Position numbers and translations under genes: made by a program. A stretch of DNA of 64,000 nucleotides, from sequence record PQ850594.1; one strand, written 5' to 3'. Source of the DNA: Escherichia phage AnnaHegner_Bas87. The notes below the pieces were generated by a model. It had not been told where the DNA came from. It saw nothing but the letters and a program-made list of their open reading frames with translations, and made no database searches. This document shows positions 4,674 through 52,282 of the stretch, piece by piece. Positions within the stretch are counted from its first letter, which is position 1. Each line of letters begins with the position of its first letter.

Positions 4674-4687
4674 AATTGGAGGTACTT

Positions 4688-5656
4688 ATGGGTGCTGGAG
4701 GTTTTCGAAAGAATACTGGTAGAAACAACACCACACTTCCGTACAATGTTGGTTTTCTAAACAATGTGCAGGATACAGAAACTTACAACGTTGCCGTCTA
4801 TGATGAACTACAAAAAGTTAGTACAGCAACTAATCAGATGTTTCAAGCTATTGATGAAATACATGAAGAAATTGATGTTAGGATTAAAGCTCTTAATGCA
4901 ATGAATCTTCAATTTGATGAACTTGAAAACAGAATTACTACAGAGATCGAAACAGCTATTGCTGATATTCAAACACAGATGGGCAATCTGTCCACTGAAG
5001 ATATTTGGGATAATTCAGTACAACCGCCAGTTAAGCTAGAAAGTTCTATGGCAGGGTTTAAAACTTCTATAGAAGGTAATGAGGTTAAGATACAATCTGT
5101 TGAGGGAATCGTAAACCAGCAGGGAGAGGAAATTGGCTTAGTTCAAACAGAGATCTCCAACATTAACAGCAGTCTATCTTCTTATATGAAGCTATCTGAC
5201 TACGAAGCTACGTGGGGAATTAACTCAAATGTCAACGGTAGGTATGCTGGTGTCAAACTAACTAACAACGGCACGAATAGTCAGTTCCAAGTTACAGCTG
5301 ATAAGTTTGTTGTAGGTGATGGTAACTCGGGTAATACACCTTTTGTATTTGAAGGAGGTCGAGCTAAGATAGAGTTTGCTGATATTAAGAACGTCAATAT
5401 CACAACTGCTCAAATTGCTAATGCTCGTATTCAGTTTGCTCAAATAGATAACGTGTGGATTACTGATGGTCAGATTGCCAATCTTACAGCTAACAAGATC
5501 ACTGCTGGCTCTATGAGTGGTTCAAACTGGAGACTTACTGTTGGTGGGGATTTTGTGATGGGTGGCACAGGTGGGGCACAGCTCTGGATGAATGGTAATA
5601 GAATTGATTTCTATGATGGGAGCGGTGCACTGAGAATCAGAATAGGGAGTTGGTAA
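4688..5656 (+). CDS. tail fibre-like structural protein
   Basis: start moved to ATG at 4688 (GGAGG RBS; track ORF begins at in-frame TTG 4676); coiled-coil N-half, Gly-rich C-half. Confidence 0.4.
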   Translation: MGAGGFRKNTGRNNTTLPYNVGFLNNVQDTETYNVAVYDELQKVSTATNQMFQAIDEIHEEIDVRIKALNAMNLQFDELENRITTEIETAIADIQTQMGNLSTEDIWDNSVQPPVKLESSMAGFKTSIEGNEVKIQSVEGIVNQQGEEIGLVQTEISNINSSLSSYMKLSDYEATWGINSNVNGRYAGVKLTNNGTNSQFQVTADKFVVGDGNSGNTPFVFEGGRAKIEFADIKNVNITTAQIANARIQFAQIDNVWITDGQIANLTANKITAGSMSGSNWRLTVGGDFVMGGTGGAQLWMNGNRIDFYDGSGALRIRIGSW

Positions 5657-5657
5657 T

Positions 5658-6689
5658 ATGGCTTATGGAATATGGTGTCAACCTGTAGGACCGGGACCAG
5701 CTTCCCCAGCTCCTCTCTTTATTGATAGCGGAAGCACTTTTCCTCAAATAAAAAATTCAATAAGTGGGAGTTTCAACTTTAACGGGGCTGGTAGATCTTT
5801 TCCTATTAGTGGGTGGGATGGGAGTGGTCAAATAGTGATTGTACCAACAGGCTCTCTTTGTTGGCAATGGGAGGTTCCTCCTAATTTAGTTCCTGATGTA
5901 TATTGTGTCAACAATATCTATGTAGAGAATAACACATCATTCAGGGTTACATTAAACCAAAACCCGGGAAGCAACCCTTTGTTTGACTGTGGTTTCAATG
6001 TATATCAAATCTACCCAAGAGCTGATAGGAACTATGGAATAACCTTCTCTAATACAGCTGATTATTTCTCTATCTCAGATGCTGGGATTGTGGGTCAATG
6101 CATCTGGGCTTGGCAAGGAACTATAAACAACGCTCTACAGATACCTGATATTGGTGGTTTCTATATGCCTAATGCTGTAGTTTTTGCTAACTGGTCTGAT
6201 GGTGGTGTTGGTTTATCTTATACATCAGGAGATAGGGTGATTCGAGTTTATCAAAACAGGTCTTATAACAATGGCAACACTAATGAAGGTGGTTCTGTGT
6301 TTGCTAGGGTTGCTGTATTTTGTAATGGTGCTGGGGTTCCTGAACACAACGGCGGTTTAAATATATACTCTCCCGGAACTACTCAGTGCGTATTCTCTAC
6401 TTATAGGTCTCCTTTTACAGTAGACACTTTCGTAGGCTCAGCAGGTGGAAATACTGGCTTAGCTTATCCTATGATTCCTCTGTCTTCTGGAGTTGGAGCT
6501 ATCAGAGGAAGTGGGAGTGGTTGGTATTATCAACAAATGCGTTCTCATACCATGTCAGGGTCTTCAATAGGAACTGGATATGGTAGATATATGTTCCAAT
6601 GGTCTAACAGTTATGACTTAGGTTCTAATGCTGCTGTTAATATCTCCATCCCTGTAATCAACGCTGCTAAGATTTTTGCAGGTTTATGA
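5658..6689 (+). CDS. tail fibre / receptor-binding-like structural protein
   Basis: Gly/Asn-rich beta-type composition, structural block; no catalytic motif. Confidence 0.35.
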   Translation: MAYGIWCQPVGPGPASPAPLFIDSGSTFPQIKNSISGSFNFNGAGRSFPISGWDGSGQIVIVPTGSLCWQWEVPPNLVPDVYCVNNIYVENNTSFRVTLNQNPGSNPLFDCGFNVYQIYPRADRNYGITFSNTADYFSISDAGIVGQCIWAWQGTINNALQIPDIGGFYMPNAVVFANWSDGGVGLSYTSGDRVIRVYQNRSYNNGNTNEGGSVFARVAVFCNGAGVPEHNGGLNIYSPGTTQCVFSTYRSPFTVDTFVGSAGGNTGLAYPMIPLSSGVGAIRGSGSGWYYQQMRSHTMSGSSIGTGYGRYMFQWSNSYDLGSNAAVNISIPVINAAKIFAGL

Positions 6690-9553: not shown

Positions 9554-11221
9554 ATGCAACAAACTTCTTATGCGTATCTTCGCAGTCAAGACCCAAGAAA
9601 TCAGATTTATGGTGTTAAACAAGGGGCCGCTTCGGCCTCTCCATACATGGCAAGACCTGCTTATCCAGCTGCTGATGTTTCTATGTATAACCGGAGACCT
9701 CCTGCCTCTCCTGTAGGTTTATCCTCTCTTGTTGCTACTACTCAAGAAGACCAAGAAGCTATGTTAAATCCGGGATTTAGGCAGCGCCTTATGGAAGCAG
9801 AGAATCAAGGGACTCCTACAAGCCTTCAGGGTATTGATATTGGCGAACCAGCTCCTGCTATGAATAACCCAGATCTATCCTCTGATGAGGGTCTACAAGC
9901 TGCTGGGTTGATGCCTAGTGACCCACTTCCTGTTACTCCTCCTCGTAAACCTCTGGAAGAAACAGATAAAGAGTTCTCTCCAGTTCAGGTGGAACAGGCT
10001 CAGAATGTTATTAACACTTTAGCTAATAGTAATCCAGCTCCTGAAGGTATGGCTGGTGCAACTCGTGCTAAAGACCAAGAACGTATTAATAATGATATTA
10101 TGGAAGTAGCTAAAGCTAAAGATCCAGCACAAGCTTGGAATGAGCTTCAGAAGCAACCGTTCTACCAGAAGTCTAGTTTCTATACTGGCTTAATGGGTGT
10201 TGGTCTTTCTATCATGTCAGGTAAATCCCCTATTGAAGCTTTCCAGATTGGTTCTGGCTTAGCTGCTCAGGATGAAACTAAACAACAACTAGAAGCCAAC
10301 CGTGATGCTCTGTTAGAACAAGGCTATTCTCAAGATTCAGTTGCTGCTGCAATTGCTTCGGGAGATCCCTCCCTTCTCAAAATGCGTCAGATTAGTCCTC
10401 AGGAGAAGATGGCTCTTGCTGCTCAGGATGAAGAACGTGCTAATCGTGAGTGGGATAGACGTCAACAGATTCAAGAGAATTCGATGCGGGAACGTGCTGC
10501 TGAAACTCGTCGTGCTGCTGAAGAACGTGCTAATGCTCAGTTCGAGAAACAGAAAGAACTTATTGGATATCGTGATCAAGTTAAAGCAGAGCGTGCAGAG
10601 AAGGCTGCTCAGAGCTTTACTTTCAACCCTAAAGAAGTTCGTCTGGCTCAGAACACAGCAGAAGGTACAGTTGCTAAGCAGTGGGCAGAGAAAGCAGGTC
10701 TGTTCAACCAGTCTCATAAGGACTTGGATTTAGCAGACAAAGCTGTTAAGGATAAGGATTACCAAACTGCTCGTTCTGCTTACATGCAGGCTATTATGAA
10801 CTCCGCAAGGGCAGAAATTGGTGCTAACCGTTCTCTCCAAGCTGATGACTTGGCTCACTTTGCAGAAGACCCGTCAATCTTCGTTAAGGTTGGTAATACT
10901 TGGTCCCTTAAAGCAGGCTATCGTCCTTCTGATGCTGCTCTGTCATATGCTCGTAAGCAGGCAACTGTTGGTGCTACTTCCGCTGAGAAAGGTGTGAAGG
11001 ATGCTAAGAAAGCAACAATTGAGGCATATATCGGTTCTGGTATGGATAAGAAAAGAGCTACAGCTCTTGTCAACCGTGCTATCCCATCTGCTGGTTTCTA
11101 TGACCCATTCGGTACGTTTGAGAGTGAAGCTGAAGCAGCTGTTGGTGGAGATACTACAAATCCTCGCTTAACAGGTGCTCTTTCTTCTTCAGCGGCAGAT
11201 ACGAGTTGGATGTTCCAGTAA
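9554..11221 (+). CDS. internal virion protein
   Basis: 555 aa, charged coiled-coil middle, structural-block position. Confidence 0.35.
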   Translation: MQQTSYAYLRSQDPRNQIYGVKQGAASASPYMARPAYPAADVSMYNRRPPASPVGLSSLVATTQEDQEAMLNPGFRQRLMEAENQGTPTSLQGIDIGEPAPAMNNPDLSSDEGLQAAGLMPSDPLPVTPPRKPLEETDKEFSPVQVEQAQNVINTLANSNPAPEGMAGATRAKDQERINNDIMEVAKAKDPAQAWNELQKQPFYQKSSFYTGLMGVGLSIMSGKSPIEAFQIGSGLAAQDETKQQLEANRDALLEQGYSQDSVAAAIASGDPSLLKMRQISPQEKMALAAQDEERANREWDRRQQIQENSMRERAAETRRAAEERANAQFEKQKELIGYRDQVKAERAEKAAQSFTFNPKEVRLAQNTAEGTVAKQWAEKAGLFNQSHKDLDLADKAVKDKDYQTARSAYMQAIMNSARAEIGANRSLQADDLAHFAEDPSIFVKVGNTWSLKAGYRPSDAALSYARKQATVGATSAEKGVKDAKKATIEAYIGSGMDKKRATALVNRAIPSAGFYDPFGTFESEAEAAVGGDTTNPRLTGALSSSAADTSWMFQ

Positions 11222-11246: not shown

Positions 11247-11255
11247 TAATGTATA
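11247..11255 (+). promoter_or_regulatory. TAATGTATA phage-sigma promoter-like element
   Basis: exact TAATGTATA about 37 nt upstream of the 11292 start codon, followed by AAGGAGA RBS. Confidence 0.5.
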
Positions 11256-21174: not shown

Positions 21175-21183
21175 TATACATTA
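21175..21183 (-). promoter_or_regulatory. TAATGTATA promoter-like element (minus strand)
   Basis: exact motif about 60 nt upstream of the 21115 start. Confidence 0.5.
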
Positions 21184-49371: not shown

Positions 49372-49629
49372 TCAATAGAAGGTGTGTGTAGAGTCATCGT
49401 TCATACATAACCAAACGAAGAAGACAATCACACAGAAAGCAATAACACCGAGAACTGCAAGGATTATAGTGTTAGCTAATGTGGTATCTAACACGCTTTG
49501 CAGGTACATAAAGAATTGTACGATACCACATAACCCTAGCACGACCCCAACGACAATGAGGAGCCAATATGTGCAGAGAAGGACTGCATCTAATAGTGAT
49601 ACATACTTTGGATGATCTTTATGTCTCAC
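49372..49629 (-). CDS. small multi-pass membrane protein
   Basis: three hydrophobic segments. Confidence 0.4.
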   Translation of the reverse strand: MRHKDHPKYVSLLDAVLLCTYWLLIVVGVVLGLCGIVQFFMYLQSVLDTTLANTIILAVLGVIAFCVIVFFVWLCMNDDSTHTFY

Positions 49630-50419: not shown

Positions 50420-50674
50420 TCACTTAGTAAGAAAGATTATCAACTTATCCGCTACCCAGCCTATTAACATAAGGACAGGTAAGAAGAAGATAAAGATCAG
50501 CATAAAAGGCCAGAAGAATATCACCGTCCAAATAGAAAGTATATCAGGCTGACCACTCCATGAGCAGTGGAAGAAGTTGTAGAGTGTATTGGTTTTGAAA
50601 CACCATTTAACTGCGATGGCTGCTAACCACCAACCAATAACATAAATCAGGAGGACATACGCTGCTGTAACCAT
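50420..50674 (-). CDS. small membrane protein
   Basis: two or three hydrophobic helices, Trp-rich. Confidence 0.4.
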   Translation of the reverse strand: MVTAAYVLLIYVIGWWLAAIAVKWCFKTNTLYNFFHCSWSGQPDILSIWTVIFFWPFMLIFIFFLPVLMLIGWVADKLIIFLTK

Positions 50675-50902: not shown

Positions 50903-51229
50903 TCACCACTCCTTACCCTTTGTTGTTACAGAGCCACTACACTGTACACCACGGGAGATAAAGTCATAACGCGACCAATCACCTTGTGTCTCCATATCAC
51001 GCCCTGCATAAGCCTTCTCATCAACAGCACCGCCGTTGGAACAAGAAGCACCAGCATAACGCATATCAATTTCACCACTAGGAATCTTCTCCCCGCTGTG
51101 CCAACGGGAAACACAGACACCTTCTACCGATAATGCACACCATCCATCAGGACGATGCTGTACGCAGCCTGTAAGAGCTACACAGGCGATAAAGATACAG
51201 GTTAAGGTAATTACACCACCCCAGCTCAT
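50903..51229 (-). CDS. Cys-rich lipoprotein, superinfection-exclusion candidate
   Basis: signal peptide with lipobox LTGC; mature part has 6 additional Cys. Confidence 0.45.
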   Translation of the reverse strand: MSWGGVITLTCIFIACVALTGCVQHRPDGWCALSVEGVCVSRWHSGEKIPSGEIDMRYAGASCSNGGAVDEKAYAGRDMETQGDWSRYDFISRGVQCSGSVTTKGKEW

Positions 51230-51366
51230 GATCCCTCCTGAAGCGCCTTACGGCGGCTATCTCGCCAAGCCATCCATAGGTAGGTTTTGAGTTCTTCTCT
51301 CTCTTCTTCGCTGAATAAAGGAGAAGTAAAGATATCATCAAACCACTCATTAAACTCAGGGGTCAT
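51226..51366 (-). CDS. hypothetical small acidic protein (sub-60 aa, not in ORF track)
   Basis: AGGAGG RBS then ATG right after the tRNA; 46 aa; stop overlaps the lipoprotein start (ATGA). Confidence 0.35.
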   Translation of the reverse strand: MTPEFNEWFDDIFTSPLFSEEEREELKTYLWMAWRDSRRKALQEGS

Positions 51367-51384: not shown

Positions 51385-51460
51385 TGGTGCACCCTACAGG
51401 ATTCGAACCTGTAACCAACGACTTAGAAGGTCGCTGCTCTATCCATTGAGCTAAGGGTGC
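51385..51460 (-). tRNA. tRNA-Arg (anticodon UCU), with encoded CCA
   Basis: cloverleaf folded by hand: 7 bp acceptor stem GCACCCT/AGGGTGC, D-arm GCTC/GAGC, anticodon loop CUUCUAA, T-arm ACAGG-TTCGAAT-CCTGT. Confidence 0.85.
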
Positions 51461-51469
51461 TGGATTTGT

Positions 51470-51679
51470 TTAACTAAAAATACGCAAGGCCACATCGTGA
51501 CCAATATGACCGGGAACTTTATGCTGCTCTATTTTCAGACAGCGCTTACAGATACGAGATACACGAGACTCTTTTCTCTCAACTGGAGTGTCTTTAGCAT
51601 GAGTGATTTGAAGGTTTTCAGTGATCACCCACTCATGTTTACATTCAGAATCTTCGGGCTTTTTCTTACGAAAGAACAT
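51470..51679 (-). CDS. small zinc-ribbon protein, HEW/CxxC family
   Basis: start moved to internal Met (MFFRKKK) with AAGAGGTG RBS; CKHEW...CKRC. Confidence 0.4.
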   Translation of the reverse strand: MFFRKKKPEDSECKHEWVITENLQITHAKDTPVERKESRVSRICKRCLKIEQHKVPGHIGHDVALRIFS

Positions 51680-51687
51680 AACACCTC

Positions 51688-51852
51688 TTAGATCAGATCT
51701 GTTTTCTTGTGCAGACCACACACTTTACAGCGAGAGTAGATACGCAACCCTTGTCGCTCTCTGTCAGTAAGTTTATTTGTGATCGTCAGTTCATAAGTAG
51801 AAAGATCTTCCCACTCATGGAAATGAAATAGACGTTTGAACCATTTGATCAT
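51688..51852 (-). CDS. small zinc-ribbon protein, HEW/CxxC family (not in ORF track)
   Basis: MIKWFKRLFHFHEW...CKVCG, 54 aa. Confidence 0.4.
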   Translation of the reverse strand: MIKWFKRLFHFHEWEDLSTYELTITNKLTDRERQGLRIYSRCKVCGLHKKTDLI

Positions 51853-51861
51853 AATGATTCC

Positions 51862-52023
51862 TTAGATTACATCACGATGACTAACATCACCACACACCTT
51901 ACACTGAATAACGTAACGTGTGCCCTTGTCATTGTTCCCATCTGAATCCGTATAGACCAGAGGACGGGTGTTAATAATCTTCCAATCATGACAATGGAAG
52001 ACACGCTTTAGCCACTTAATCAT
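51862..52023 (-). CDS. small zinc-ribbon protein, HEW/CxxC family
   Basis: start moved to internal Met (MIKWLKRVFHCHDW...CKVCG). Confidence 0.4.
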   Translation of the reverse strand: MIKWLKRVFHCHDWKIINTRPLVYTDSDGNNDKGTRYVIQCKVCGDVSHRDVI

Positions 52024-52024
52024 A

Positions 52025-52282
52025 TTAAGCACACGCCGGTAATTCAATTAACTGAGGAGTACGACAAGGGCCATCCTCATACACACCTACCAGTGTTGGC
52101 ATGTAAGGCCCAGCGCACTGGTATTCATCGAACAGTTCATTGTAAGTAGGCTTCCACTTCCAAGCCCACACATAACCCATTCGATCAATGGCAATGTAAC
52201 GAGTGTTCAGAGGAACCTGCATCATCACATCACCAACTGCTATTACTTTCGTAATAACTGCTGCTCGGAAGTTTGTCTTCAT
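52025..52282 (-). CDS. hypothetical protein
   Basis: ORF only. Confidence 0.35.
   Translation of the reverse strand: MKTNFRAAVITKVIAVGDVMMQVPLNTRYIAIDRMGYVWAWKWKPTYNELFDEYQCAGPYMPTLVGVYEDGPCRTPQLIELPACA

Follow-up and report, generated by a model that had tools for sequence, protein, structure and literature searches.

A Predicted Lipoprotein of Escherichia Phage AnnaHegner_Bas87 as a Candidate LptD-Directed Superinfection-Exclusion Factor of the Rtp45 Family

A Candidate Exclusion Lipoprotein

The present work concerns a small gene of Escherichia phage AnnaHegner_Bas87 (sequence record PQ850594.1), located on the minus strand at positions 50903–51229 of an analyzed stretch of 64,000 nucleotides, hereafter referred to as the window. 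The gene starts with ATG and codes for 108 amino acids followed by a stop codon; we assign it to the Rtp45/PF24052 family of phage lipoproteins. According to the reading that we favor, and to which we give a probability of about 0.68, its product would be an outer-membrane lipoprotein, made early in infection, which binds the LptDE complex in the way Rtp45 does and blocks the LptD-binding protein of the phage itself, the outcome being superinfection exclusion. This reading is built on the membership of the protein in the family, on its conserved cysteine pattern, on the similarity of its predicted fold to that of Rtp45, and on the presence in the same window of a homolog of LptD-type receptor-binding proteins (RBPs).

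A first-pass annotation of the same DNA had proposed this open reading frame (ORF) as a superinfection-exclusion candidate, on the grounds that small phage lipoproteins commonly block the receptor on which their own phage depends. Its coordinates turned out to be exact, and the strand, which it did not state, is the minus one. The proposal of exclusion finds support in homology, that is, in the PF24052 match, in Rtp45 being the only relative in the Protein Data Bank (PDB), in the fold match, and in the RBP homolog. Since the latter is of the LptD type and lies in the same window, the blocking of the receptor of the same phage is plausible; the target that homology implies, LptD, goes beyond what had been suggested.

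Family Membership and Predicted Fold

The full translation of the ORF, MSWGGVITLTCIFIACVALTGCVQHRPDGWCALSVEGVCVSRWHSGEKIPSGEIDMRYAGASCSNGGAVDEKAYAGRDMETQGDWSRYDFISRGVQCSGSVTTKGKEW, matched the Pfam family PF24052 (Phage_lipoprotein) with an E value of 6.5e-36 and 122.6 bits (the gathering cut-off being 27), over positions 1–80 of the 80 of the model and residues 3–108 of the protein; no other Pfam family was retrieved at E up to 10. At the same threshold, a sequence search of the whole PDB gave a single match, represented by chain D of 9RPS, i.e., Rtp45 (E 1.5e-15), with 44% identity over 66 amino acids and residues 6–70 aligned by HMMER. The two proteins have in common the motif RPDGWC..GVCV..W..G..P.GE.D.RY.G. 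The searches of NCBIfam and PADLOC with the lipoprotein did not retrieve any match, and among the PHROGs it falls only in the unnamed family phrog_4281.

The HMMER alignment to 9rps_D delimits a conserved family core, corresponding to residues 26–60 (RPDGWC31...GVC39...G..P.GE.D.RY.G; 51050–51154, minus strand). In this core, C31 and C39 align with C30 and C38 of Rtp45 and are invariant in all 87 family members compared; they would form a disulfide equivalent to the Cys30–Cys38 bridge of Rtp45. G52 and D55 are also invariant in this set, and G29, G37, G46, R57, G60, E107, and W108 are nearly so. The last two residues belong to the C-terminal strand (50906–50938, minus strand), which ends in the family motif G-K-E-W and whose E107 and W108 are found in at least 90% of the members; the corresponding ends are ..GSKEWN in Rtp45 and ..KSREW in SEOeko.

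An AlphaFold2 model of the lipoprotein, built from the 87-sequence alignment, predicts an ordered beta structure with a mean predicted local distance difference test score (pLDDT) of 87. When this model was compared with the PDB by Foldseek, the only credible match was 9rps_D, with a probability of 1.00 and a template modeling (TM) score of 0.77 normalized to the 53-residue target, the next match having an E value above 2. The predicted fold corresponds to the experimental one of Rtp45, which consists of a disulfide-stapled core and a long beta-hairpin.

Two other families of exclusion lipoproteins were considered and discarded. As for the Llp family of phage T5, no Llp family was retrieved from Pfam and no Llp chain from the PDB at E up to 10. 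As for the Cor family, T1 Cor gave a best E value of 0.6 against the ORFs of the window, and the window lipoprotein one of 0.9 against the T1 genome. A PF24052 homolog of Escherichia phage vB_Ec-G8 (PQ433350.1: 4504–4692) is labeled “Cor superinfection exclusion protein” in GenBank, a label that was probably transferred on the basis of function or position.

Signal Peptide and Lipobox

Residues 1–21, read from the sequence as the signal peptide (MSWGGVITLTCIFIACVALTG; 51167–51229, minus strand), lead into the lipobox L19-T20-G21-C22 (51164–51175, minus strand), whose Cys22 is predicted to be acylated and to be the first residue of the mature protein. This Cys, already recognized as the lipobox residue in the first-pass annotation, is invariant in 87 out of 87 family members, at least 90% of which also have G21; moreover, LTGC with Cys at position 22 agrees with the lipobox rule [LVI][ASTVI][GAS]C, in which Cys lies between positions 15 and 35. 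PROSITE rules of the PS51257 type for lipoprotein signal peptides also include at least one Lys or Arg in the N-terminal region (n-region) preceding the hydrophobic core. No such residue occurs before the lipobox in the window protein; the description of its signal peptide as “classical” holds for the lipobox and fails for the charged n-region.

The same feature was found in all 10 relatives with a signal peptide of the MSWGG type among the database matches, in addition to the window, and every other parsed PF24052 member carries at least one Lys or Arg in its signal peptide. Signal peptides of the MSWGG type devoid of positive charges are restricted to a Gordonclarkvirinae-like subgroup.

The sorting of lipoproteins by the Lol system is decided by the residue at position +2. 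In the window protein this residue is Val and not Asp, which leads us to expect sorting to the outer membrane; Asp at +2 does not occur in any PF24052 member of the parsed set, in agreement with outer-membrane sorting.

The Second Cysteine Pair and the Hairpin-Tip Loop

The precursor contains seven Cys residues, i.e., C11 and C16 in the signal peptide, with which they would be removed, the anchor C22, and then C31, C39, C63, and C97. The mature domain had been credited with six cysteines besides the one of the lipobox; there are four. The second pair, C63 and C97, occurs as such in 18 of the 87 family members and is entirely missing from the other 69, and in no case was one of the two found singly; this strict co-occurrence represents the signature of a second disulfide.

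The residues between C63 and C97 constitute a clade-specific loop (50939–51043, minus strand), which is predicted to be the tip of the long beta-hairpin. Its length among the four-Cys members is 8, 16–18, 23–24, or 33 residues, and the longest form is shared by the window, SU7, UKE3, ECBP2, and the sequence P0001. In the AlphaFold2 model, two predicted strands (residues 52–65 and 95–107) flank two short helices of the loop; furthermore, the Foldseek alignment has 86 columns versus the 53 residues of the Rtp45 chain, that is, exactly 33 extra columns. On the basis of the model, the loop would sit on the tip of the hairpin, the one which in Rtp45 enters the LptD lumen.

A Candidate Cognate Receptor-Binding Protein

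Lipoprotein and RBP genes are adjacent in the pairs rtp45–rtp44 and bas18_0026–bas18_0025; thus, we searched the window for a matching RBP. Probing by tblastn with Rtp44 (E 2e-13) and RBPOeko (E 5e-13) retrieved one place only, an ORF on the plus strand at 5658–6689, which codes for 343 amino acids and is a homolog of SU10 gp19. The ORF matches Pfam PF20051 (DUF6453) with an E value of 4.5e-25 and, by sequence, RBPOeko (9RPT chain C) with an E value of 7.3e-12. Its AlphaFold2 model (pLDDT 85; predicted TM score 0.86) was matched by Foldseek to 9rpt_C with an E value of 3e-13 and a TM score of 0.80, the next match having an E value of 0.17. The protein shows 100% identity to Bas86_0016 and 88% to SU10 gp19; public records label both of these “membrane protein”, with “moron” added in Bas86. 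We regard it, as a relative of Rtp44 and RBPOeko, as the putative cognate RBP. RBPOeko has been seen bound to LptDE (9RPT), and in small siphophages the presence of an LptD-type RBP locus matches LptD dependence “without exception” (PMC8594841).

The gene directly preceding that of the RBP homolog (4676–5656, plus strand) codes for a tail needle of 326 amino acids, homologous to gp18, which is the tail needle of SU10 (PMC9509320), and containing a lambda-J-like tail-tip domain (Pfam PF09327, Phage_Tail_Tip, E 8e-26). It matches residues 868–1079 of the J-like protein of Oekolampad by blastp (E 5e-8) and the C-terminal end of T1 J by tblastn (E 1e-8); overall, it aligns with the C-terminal 200–290 residues of the J-like central fibers of Oekolampad, Rtp, and T1. 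The needle of the podophage resembles a shortened J fiber, and it is the probable docking site for the RBP homolog. The J-like tip, the DUF6453 protein, and the PF24052 lipoprotein would, therefore, bring together in the window all three parts of the siphophage LptD recognition module.

The FhuA-targeting phage T1, used as a negative control, has neither the RBP type nor the lipoprotein type, and its similarity is limited to J. The lipoprotein and the gp19 homolog are both present in SU10, ECBP2, and Bas86, and the tallies of organisms obtained from the lipoprotein and RBP tblastn searches are similar. Moreover, the longest contig on record is of equal length for the sequences P0014 and P0107 (100,570 bp) and, likewise, for P0018 and P0090 (74,018 bp); these matching sizes suggest that the members of each pair lie on one metagenomic contig of a divergent SU10-like podophage.

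Distribution of the Family and Timing of Expression

The 2.5 kb around the lipoprotein gene are 93–96% identical to those of Escherichia podophages belonging to the Gordonclarkvirinae (vB_EcoP-101114UKE3, SU7, ECBP2, and Bas86/88), that is, phiEco32/SU10-like phages with the C3 morphotype. In these and related genomes, the orthologs are labeled either “hypothetical protein” (SU7_97, Bas86_0093) or “putative lipoprotein” (SU10 gp104, SGF2). The siphophage members of PF24052, which come from Rtp-like phages, Dhillonvirus (including Oekolampad, TheodorHerzl, and HK578), Klebsiella Webervirus, and Cronobacter phages, have a single Cys pair and precursors of 73–81 amino acids. The four-Cys members of known context are all located in the early small-gene region of SU10/phiEco32-like podophages; the contexts examined were those of the window, SU7, SU10, SGF2, and the loci L009, L010, L011 (two copies), L015, and L016.

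The contig L011 (Logan SRR26073952, 74 kb, Gordonclarkvirinae-like) harbors two PF24052 genes, at 1447–1776 and 10799–11098. In one of the two copies the signal peptide contains Lys and the loop is of the 33-residue type; the other one, in the canonical position, has an MSWGG signal peptide and a 24-residue loop. Klebsiella phage VAC8 (L007:2495–2722) and Cronobacter phage ESP2949-1 (L008, about 2480–2668) carry the PF24052 gene in the replication module; in Webervirus and Kyungwonvirus it is flanked by helicase/resolvase and Dam methylase genes, several kb or more from the RBP gene, and in ESP2949-1 it is unannotated.

The lipoprotein gene of the window belongs to a leftward cluster of small genes, whose class is early in phiEco32/SU10; for phiEco32, this assignment has been published (PMC8948821), and the early-listed products in the SU10 proteomics table come from genes 74 to 91. 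By analogy with these phages, the gene is likely to be expressed early. The search of the window for the phiEco32 gp36-type promoter motif, TAATGTATA, did not retrieve any exact copy near the lipoprotein gene, which fits the early class and does not amount to proof of it. Exact copies were found only at 11247 (plus), 21175 (minus), 21246 (plus), and 27525 (minus); the divergent pair at 21175/21246 is probably the boundary at which the late (rightward) units give way to the middle (leftward) ones. A scan for sigma-70 promoters between 48 and 56 kb gave nine sites versus a mean of 16.7 in shuffled sequences; as the sites are fewer than in the shuffles, the scan says nothing about the promoter of the lipoprotein gene. 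The unit has a terminator-like hairpin on either side, one at about 53.1 kb and the other at about 50.2 kb.

Proposed Mechanism

Rtp45, the exclusion lipoprotein of the siphophage Rtp, has been solved bound to LptDE (PDB 9RPS chain D; PMC12685063). According to that paper, it binds the closed LptDE at the periplasmic interface of the outer membrane, near strands 5–8 and between LptE and LptM; it possesses a Cys30–Cys38 disulfide, and its long, partly beta-stranded hairpin runs up through the LptD lumen and shifts the LptD loop EL4 by up to 20 Å, with the consequent loss of RBP binding.

On this model, the AnnaHegner_Bas87 lipoprotein would be exported, acylated at Cys22, and sorted by the Lol system to the inner leaflet of the outer membrane. 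It would then bind LptDE from the periplasm as Rtp45 does, with the C31–C39-stapled core docking on the LptD barrel and the long beta-hairpin inserting upward into the lumen; this insertion would drive EL4 into a conformation refusing the LptD-binding protein of the phage, here the DUF6453 candidate at 5658–6689, probably borne on the J-like tail needle. Infected cells, as well as the outer-membrane debris left after lysis, would cease to capture virions, and this, in turn, would result in superinfection exclusion and in the protection of the progeny. In the podophage clade, the hairpin tip would bear an additional variable loop (33 residues in the window) closed by the second disulfide C63–C97.

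We also advance, tentatively and at slightly less than even odds, a broader proposal. According to it, the terminal receptor of the Gordonclarkvirinae would be LptDE, recognized through the DUF6453 protein gp19 on the J-like needle and paired with an early Rtp45-type lipoprotein bearing a disulfide-stapled knob of 8–33 residues. The module would have moved between siphoviruses and podoviruses and would have been split into a late and an early part, and the knob would represent a new way to plug or reshape LptD.

Points Against the Proposal and Alternative Explanations

Different lines of evidence weigh against an Rtp45-like exclusion function directed at the phage’s own receptor. The function of the podophage PF24052 members is deduced from homology. 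As the n-region carries no positive charge, the efficiency of both export and lipidation is uncertain. The 33-residue knob might not fit the LptD lumen as the Rtp45 hairpin does, and the placement of the loop comes from an AlphaFold2 model; AlphaFold3 mispredicted Rtp45 and failed on its complex with LptDE, as reported by the authors of PMC12685063. In the comparison of organisms from the two tblastn searches, no co-variation was found between the loop type and the gp19 variant. Furthermore, the lipoprotein gene (50.9–51.2 kb) lies about 45 kb from that of the RBP homolog (5.7–6.7 kb), so that the window lacks the adjacency between a lipoprotein gene and a DUF6453 RBP gene downstream of gpJ; the two genes are unlinked also in Klebsiella Webervirus and Cronobacter ESP2949-1, and the separation is therefore not unique. 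As for the RBP homolog, gp19 is not among the 34 SU10 proteins detected by shotgun proteomics, which include gp16–18 and gp20–24, and it does not appear in the main text and in the searched supplementary text of the SU10 cryo-electron microscopy paper. Its place in the virion is accordingly putative, and we refer to it as a candidate RBP. Lastly, the receptors given for the Gordonclarkvirinae are the O-antigen and the lipopolysaccharide (LPS) core, with no protein receptor named (PMC11990801); the long fibers would recognize the O-antigen and the short fibers (gp16) probably the LPS core (PMC11990801, PMC9509320). The literature searched contains no link of LptD to Kuravirus, Gordonclarkvirinae, SU10, or phiEco32, nor any mention of DUF6453 or Rtp45 in connection with these phages.

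Several of these points would be expected if the lipoprotein served for the exclusion of competitors only. In this scenario, it would bind LptDE and shut out LptD-targeting siphophages (Rtp-like phages, Dhillonvirus, etc.), the Gordonclarkvirinae would not use LptD, and gp19 would not be an RBP; the dependence on O-antigen and LPS core, the failure to detect gp19 in SU10 virions, the position of the lipoprotein gene among early host-takeover genes, unlinked from gp19, and the lack of co-variation between the two proteins are all in agreement with it. Nevertheless, it leaves unexplained why a DUF6453 RBP homolog is conserved right after the J-like needle, in the late structural operon, and why homologs of the lipoprotein and of gp19 occur together in distant SU10-like lineages. 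The absence of LptD from the lists of receptors is weak evidence, since LptD is essential and essential genes escape knockout and transposon screens, as pointed out for transposon screens in a 2026 preprint. We consider this scenario unlikely. Another possibility is that the lipoprotein takes part in host takeover, altering or arresting on LptDE the insertion of LPS and O-antigen (for instance, weakening the envelope or stopping the renewal of surface glycans), with exclusion as a side effect. The location in an early region that also codes for other small proteins, some of them predicted to lie in a membrane (50420–50674 and 49372–49629), would suit such a role, as would the position of Rtp45 between LptE and LptM with its hairpin in the LptD lumen, which is the path of LPS (PMC12685063); the extra 33-residue knob could plug this lumen more fully. 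Still, the passages of the same paper that were consulted mention no effect of Rtp45 on LPS transport and describe its co-overexpression with LptDE in E. coli for the purification of the complex; the turnover of surface LPS can be expected to be slow relative to a lytic cycle, and PF24052 members elsewhere accompany LptD-binding RBPs, in keeping with the masking of a receptor. A takeover role is, in our opinion, very unlikely.

It might also be supposed that the diverged podophage clade has retained the fold and changed the target, binding another outer-membrane or periplasmic component or serving a purpose that does not involve receptors. Small exclusion lipoproteins of one and the same family can change their specificity, as in the T5-like Llp variants; the clade has an extra disulfide loop and a different signal peptide, its identity to Rtp45 amounts to only 44% over 66 residues, and the C-terminal third differs. 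Yet all the family-invariant residues are retained, LptDE is the only known partner of the PF24052 family (PMC12685063), and the genome contains an LptD-type RBP homolog and nothing resembling a FhuA/Cor module, all of which makes a change of target quite unlikely. The last alternative, that the protein is a lysis component, was rejected on the grounds of position, neighbors, and homology and appears extremely improbable. It would be the outer-membrane subunit of a spanin (o-spanin), a class that comprises small Cys-containing phage lipoproteins, and it is true that the protein is a small lipoprotein of the outer-membrane type with several Cys residues and that neither SU10 nor Bas86 has an annotated spanin next to its holin and endolysin genes. 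However, no inner-membrane spanin (i-spanin) partner is adjacent to the gene or embedded in it, as the neighboring ORFs lack the combination of an N-terminal transmembrane segment and a periplasmic coiled coil; the absence of a C-terminal transmembrane segment speaks against a unimolecular spanin (u-spanin); and about 50 kb separate the gene, with its early-region location, from those for lysis (holin and endolysin). In addition, the model shows an ordered beta structure, the homology to Rtp45 is clear, and T1, a relative of the siphophages carrying PF24052, has a separately annotated spanin gene. Exclusion directed at the phage’s own LptD-binding protein is the reading that we retain.

The Gene and Its Neighborhood

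The lipoprotein gene is a real gene, as indicated by purifying selection, by a strong Shine–Dalgarno sequence, and by coupled translation. The ratio of non-synonymous to synonymous substitution rates (dN/dS) ranges from 0.04 to 0.30 in the comparisons with the copies of SU7, SU10, SGF2, and L011; the SU7 copy differs from that of the window by 20 synonymous and 3 non-synonymous changes. The Shine–Dalgarno sequence, AGGAGGG as read on the minus strand (51233–51239, with GGAGGG at 51233–51238), is placed 4–5 nt upstream of the ATG. An ORF of 46 amino acids (51226–51366, minus strand), preceded by its own AGGAGG and annotated as a coding sequence in SU7 (SU7_98) and Bas86 (Bas86_0094), lies immediately upstream and has no match in Pfam. 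Its TGA stop overlaps the ATG of the lipoprotein gene (ATGA), implying translational coupling between the two; on the other side, the ATG of the downstream ORF starts two bases past the stop of the lipoprotein gene.

The same leftward early unit includes a tRNA-Arg(TCT) (51385–51460, minus strand), found by ARAGORN, annotated in the relatives, and located 156 nt upstream of the lipoprotein start. This tRNA is embedded in the protein-coding unit, 8 nt ahead of the Shine–Dalgarno sequence of the next ORF, and its position is conserved across the Gordonclarkvirinae. Three small ORFs, all on the minus strand (51470–51721, 51688–51852, and 51862–52047), lie just upstream of the tRNA and have in common a (C/H)-x-H-(E/D)-W motif near the N-terminus and a C-K-x-C motif near the C-terminus; they look like tandem paralogs of a small zinc-ribbon-like protein. 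Downstream of the lipoprotein gene, the early ORFs at 50420–50674 and 49372–49629, both on the minus strand, code for strongly hydrophobic proteins of 84–85 amino acids, each having two or three likely membrane-spanning stretches; the Pfam search with the former did not retrieve any match. These two ORFs suggest that the early unit may encode several envelope-directed proteins.

Significance

The PF24052 family and the mechanism of its prototype are already known (2025). According to the literature searched, the new elements are the podophage sub-clade in which a second disulfide closes a hairpin-tip loop of variable length, the absence of charge from the signal peptide, the location in the early region, and the implied occurrence of a full LptD recognition and exclusion module in the Gordonclarkvirinae. 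If the proposal is true, a function would be assigned to a gene that in about a hundred sequenced coliphages is labeled “hypothetical” or “putative lipoprotein”, and LptD would be predicted as the protein receptor of a widely isolated, therapy-relevant group of podophages. Besides being a drug target, LptD is both essential and conserved, and a genome-encoded exclusion factor is among the few sequence clues to its use by a phage. In the same case, the variable disulfide-closed loops would represent a natural series of binders of the LptD lumen, which could inform the design of peptidomimetic inhibitors.

Comparison with Known Systems

The closest known systems are Rtp45 of Rtp and SEOeko (bas18_0026) of Oekolampad, which share with the window lipoprotein the Pfam family, the lipobox Cys, the RPDGWC..GxC motif, and the C-terminal KEW. 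The likeness to Rtp45 extends to the predicted fold (TM 0.77) and to the presence of an LptD-type RBP homolog in the same genome. The window protein differs from it in length (108 amino acids versus 76), in the 33-residue insertion with the second Cys pair, which takes the place of the short Gly/Ser turn of Rtp45, in the signal peptide without Lys or Arg, and in being carried by a podovirus; moreover, rtp45 is located directly upstream of the RBP gene, whereas the window gene belongs to the early region, 45 kb away from it.

The llp gene of phage T5 is an early gene. Its product has no detectable sequence relationship to the window lipoprotein and is directed at FhuA, although it resembles what we propose here in being a small, disulfide-containing lipoprotein of the outer membrane, which binds the receptor of its phage from the periplasmic side and alters the extracellular loops of that receptor, giving both exclusion and protection of the progeny (PMC9586334 and PMC12685063). 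According to the latter, Llp acts by long-range allostery, whereas Rtp45 displaces the loops physically. The FhuA-directed Cor proteins of T1, phi80, N15, and HK022 are likewise small phage lipoproteins to which the inactivation of a receptor has been assigned, and their gene is found near the J/RBP locus of small siphophages; however, T1 Cor shows no similarity to any ORF of the window.

Finally, the window can be compared with the loci that follow gpJ in Drexlerviridae, Dhillonvirus, and related small siphophages, in which the LptD allele comprises an RBP plus an exclusion gene. The J-like tip, the DUF6453 RBP homolog, and the PF24052 lipoprotein are all present in the window, where the RBP gene is co-directional with that of the needle and directly downstream of it. 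The differences from the siphophage loci are that the J-like part is reduced to a podovirus needle of 326 amino acids and that the gene for the lipoprotein has been relocated among the early ones.

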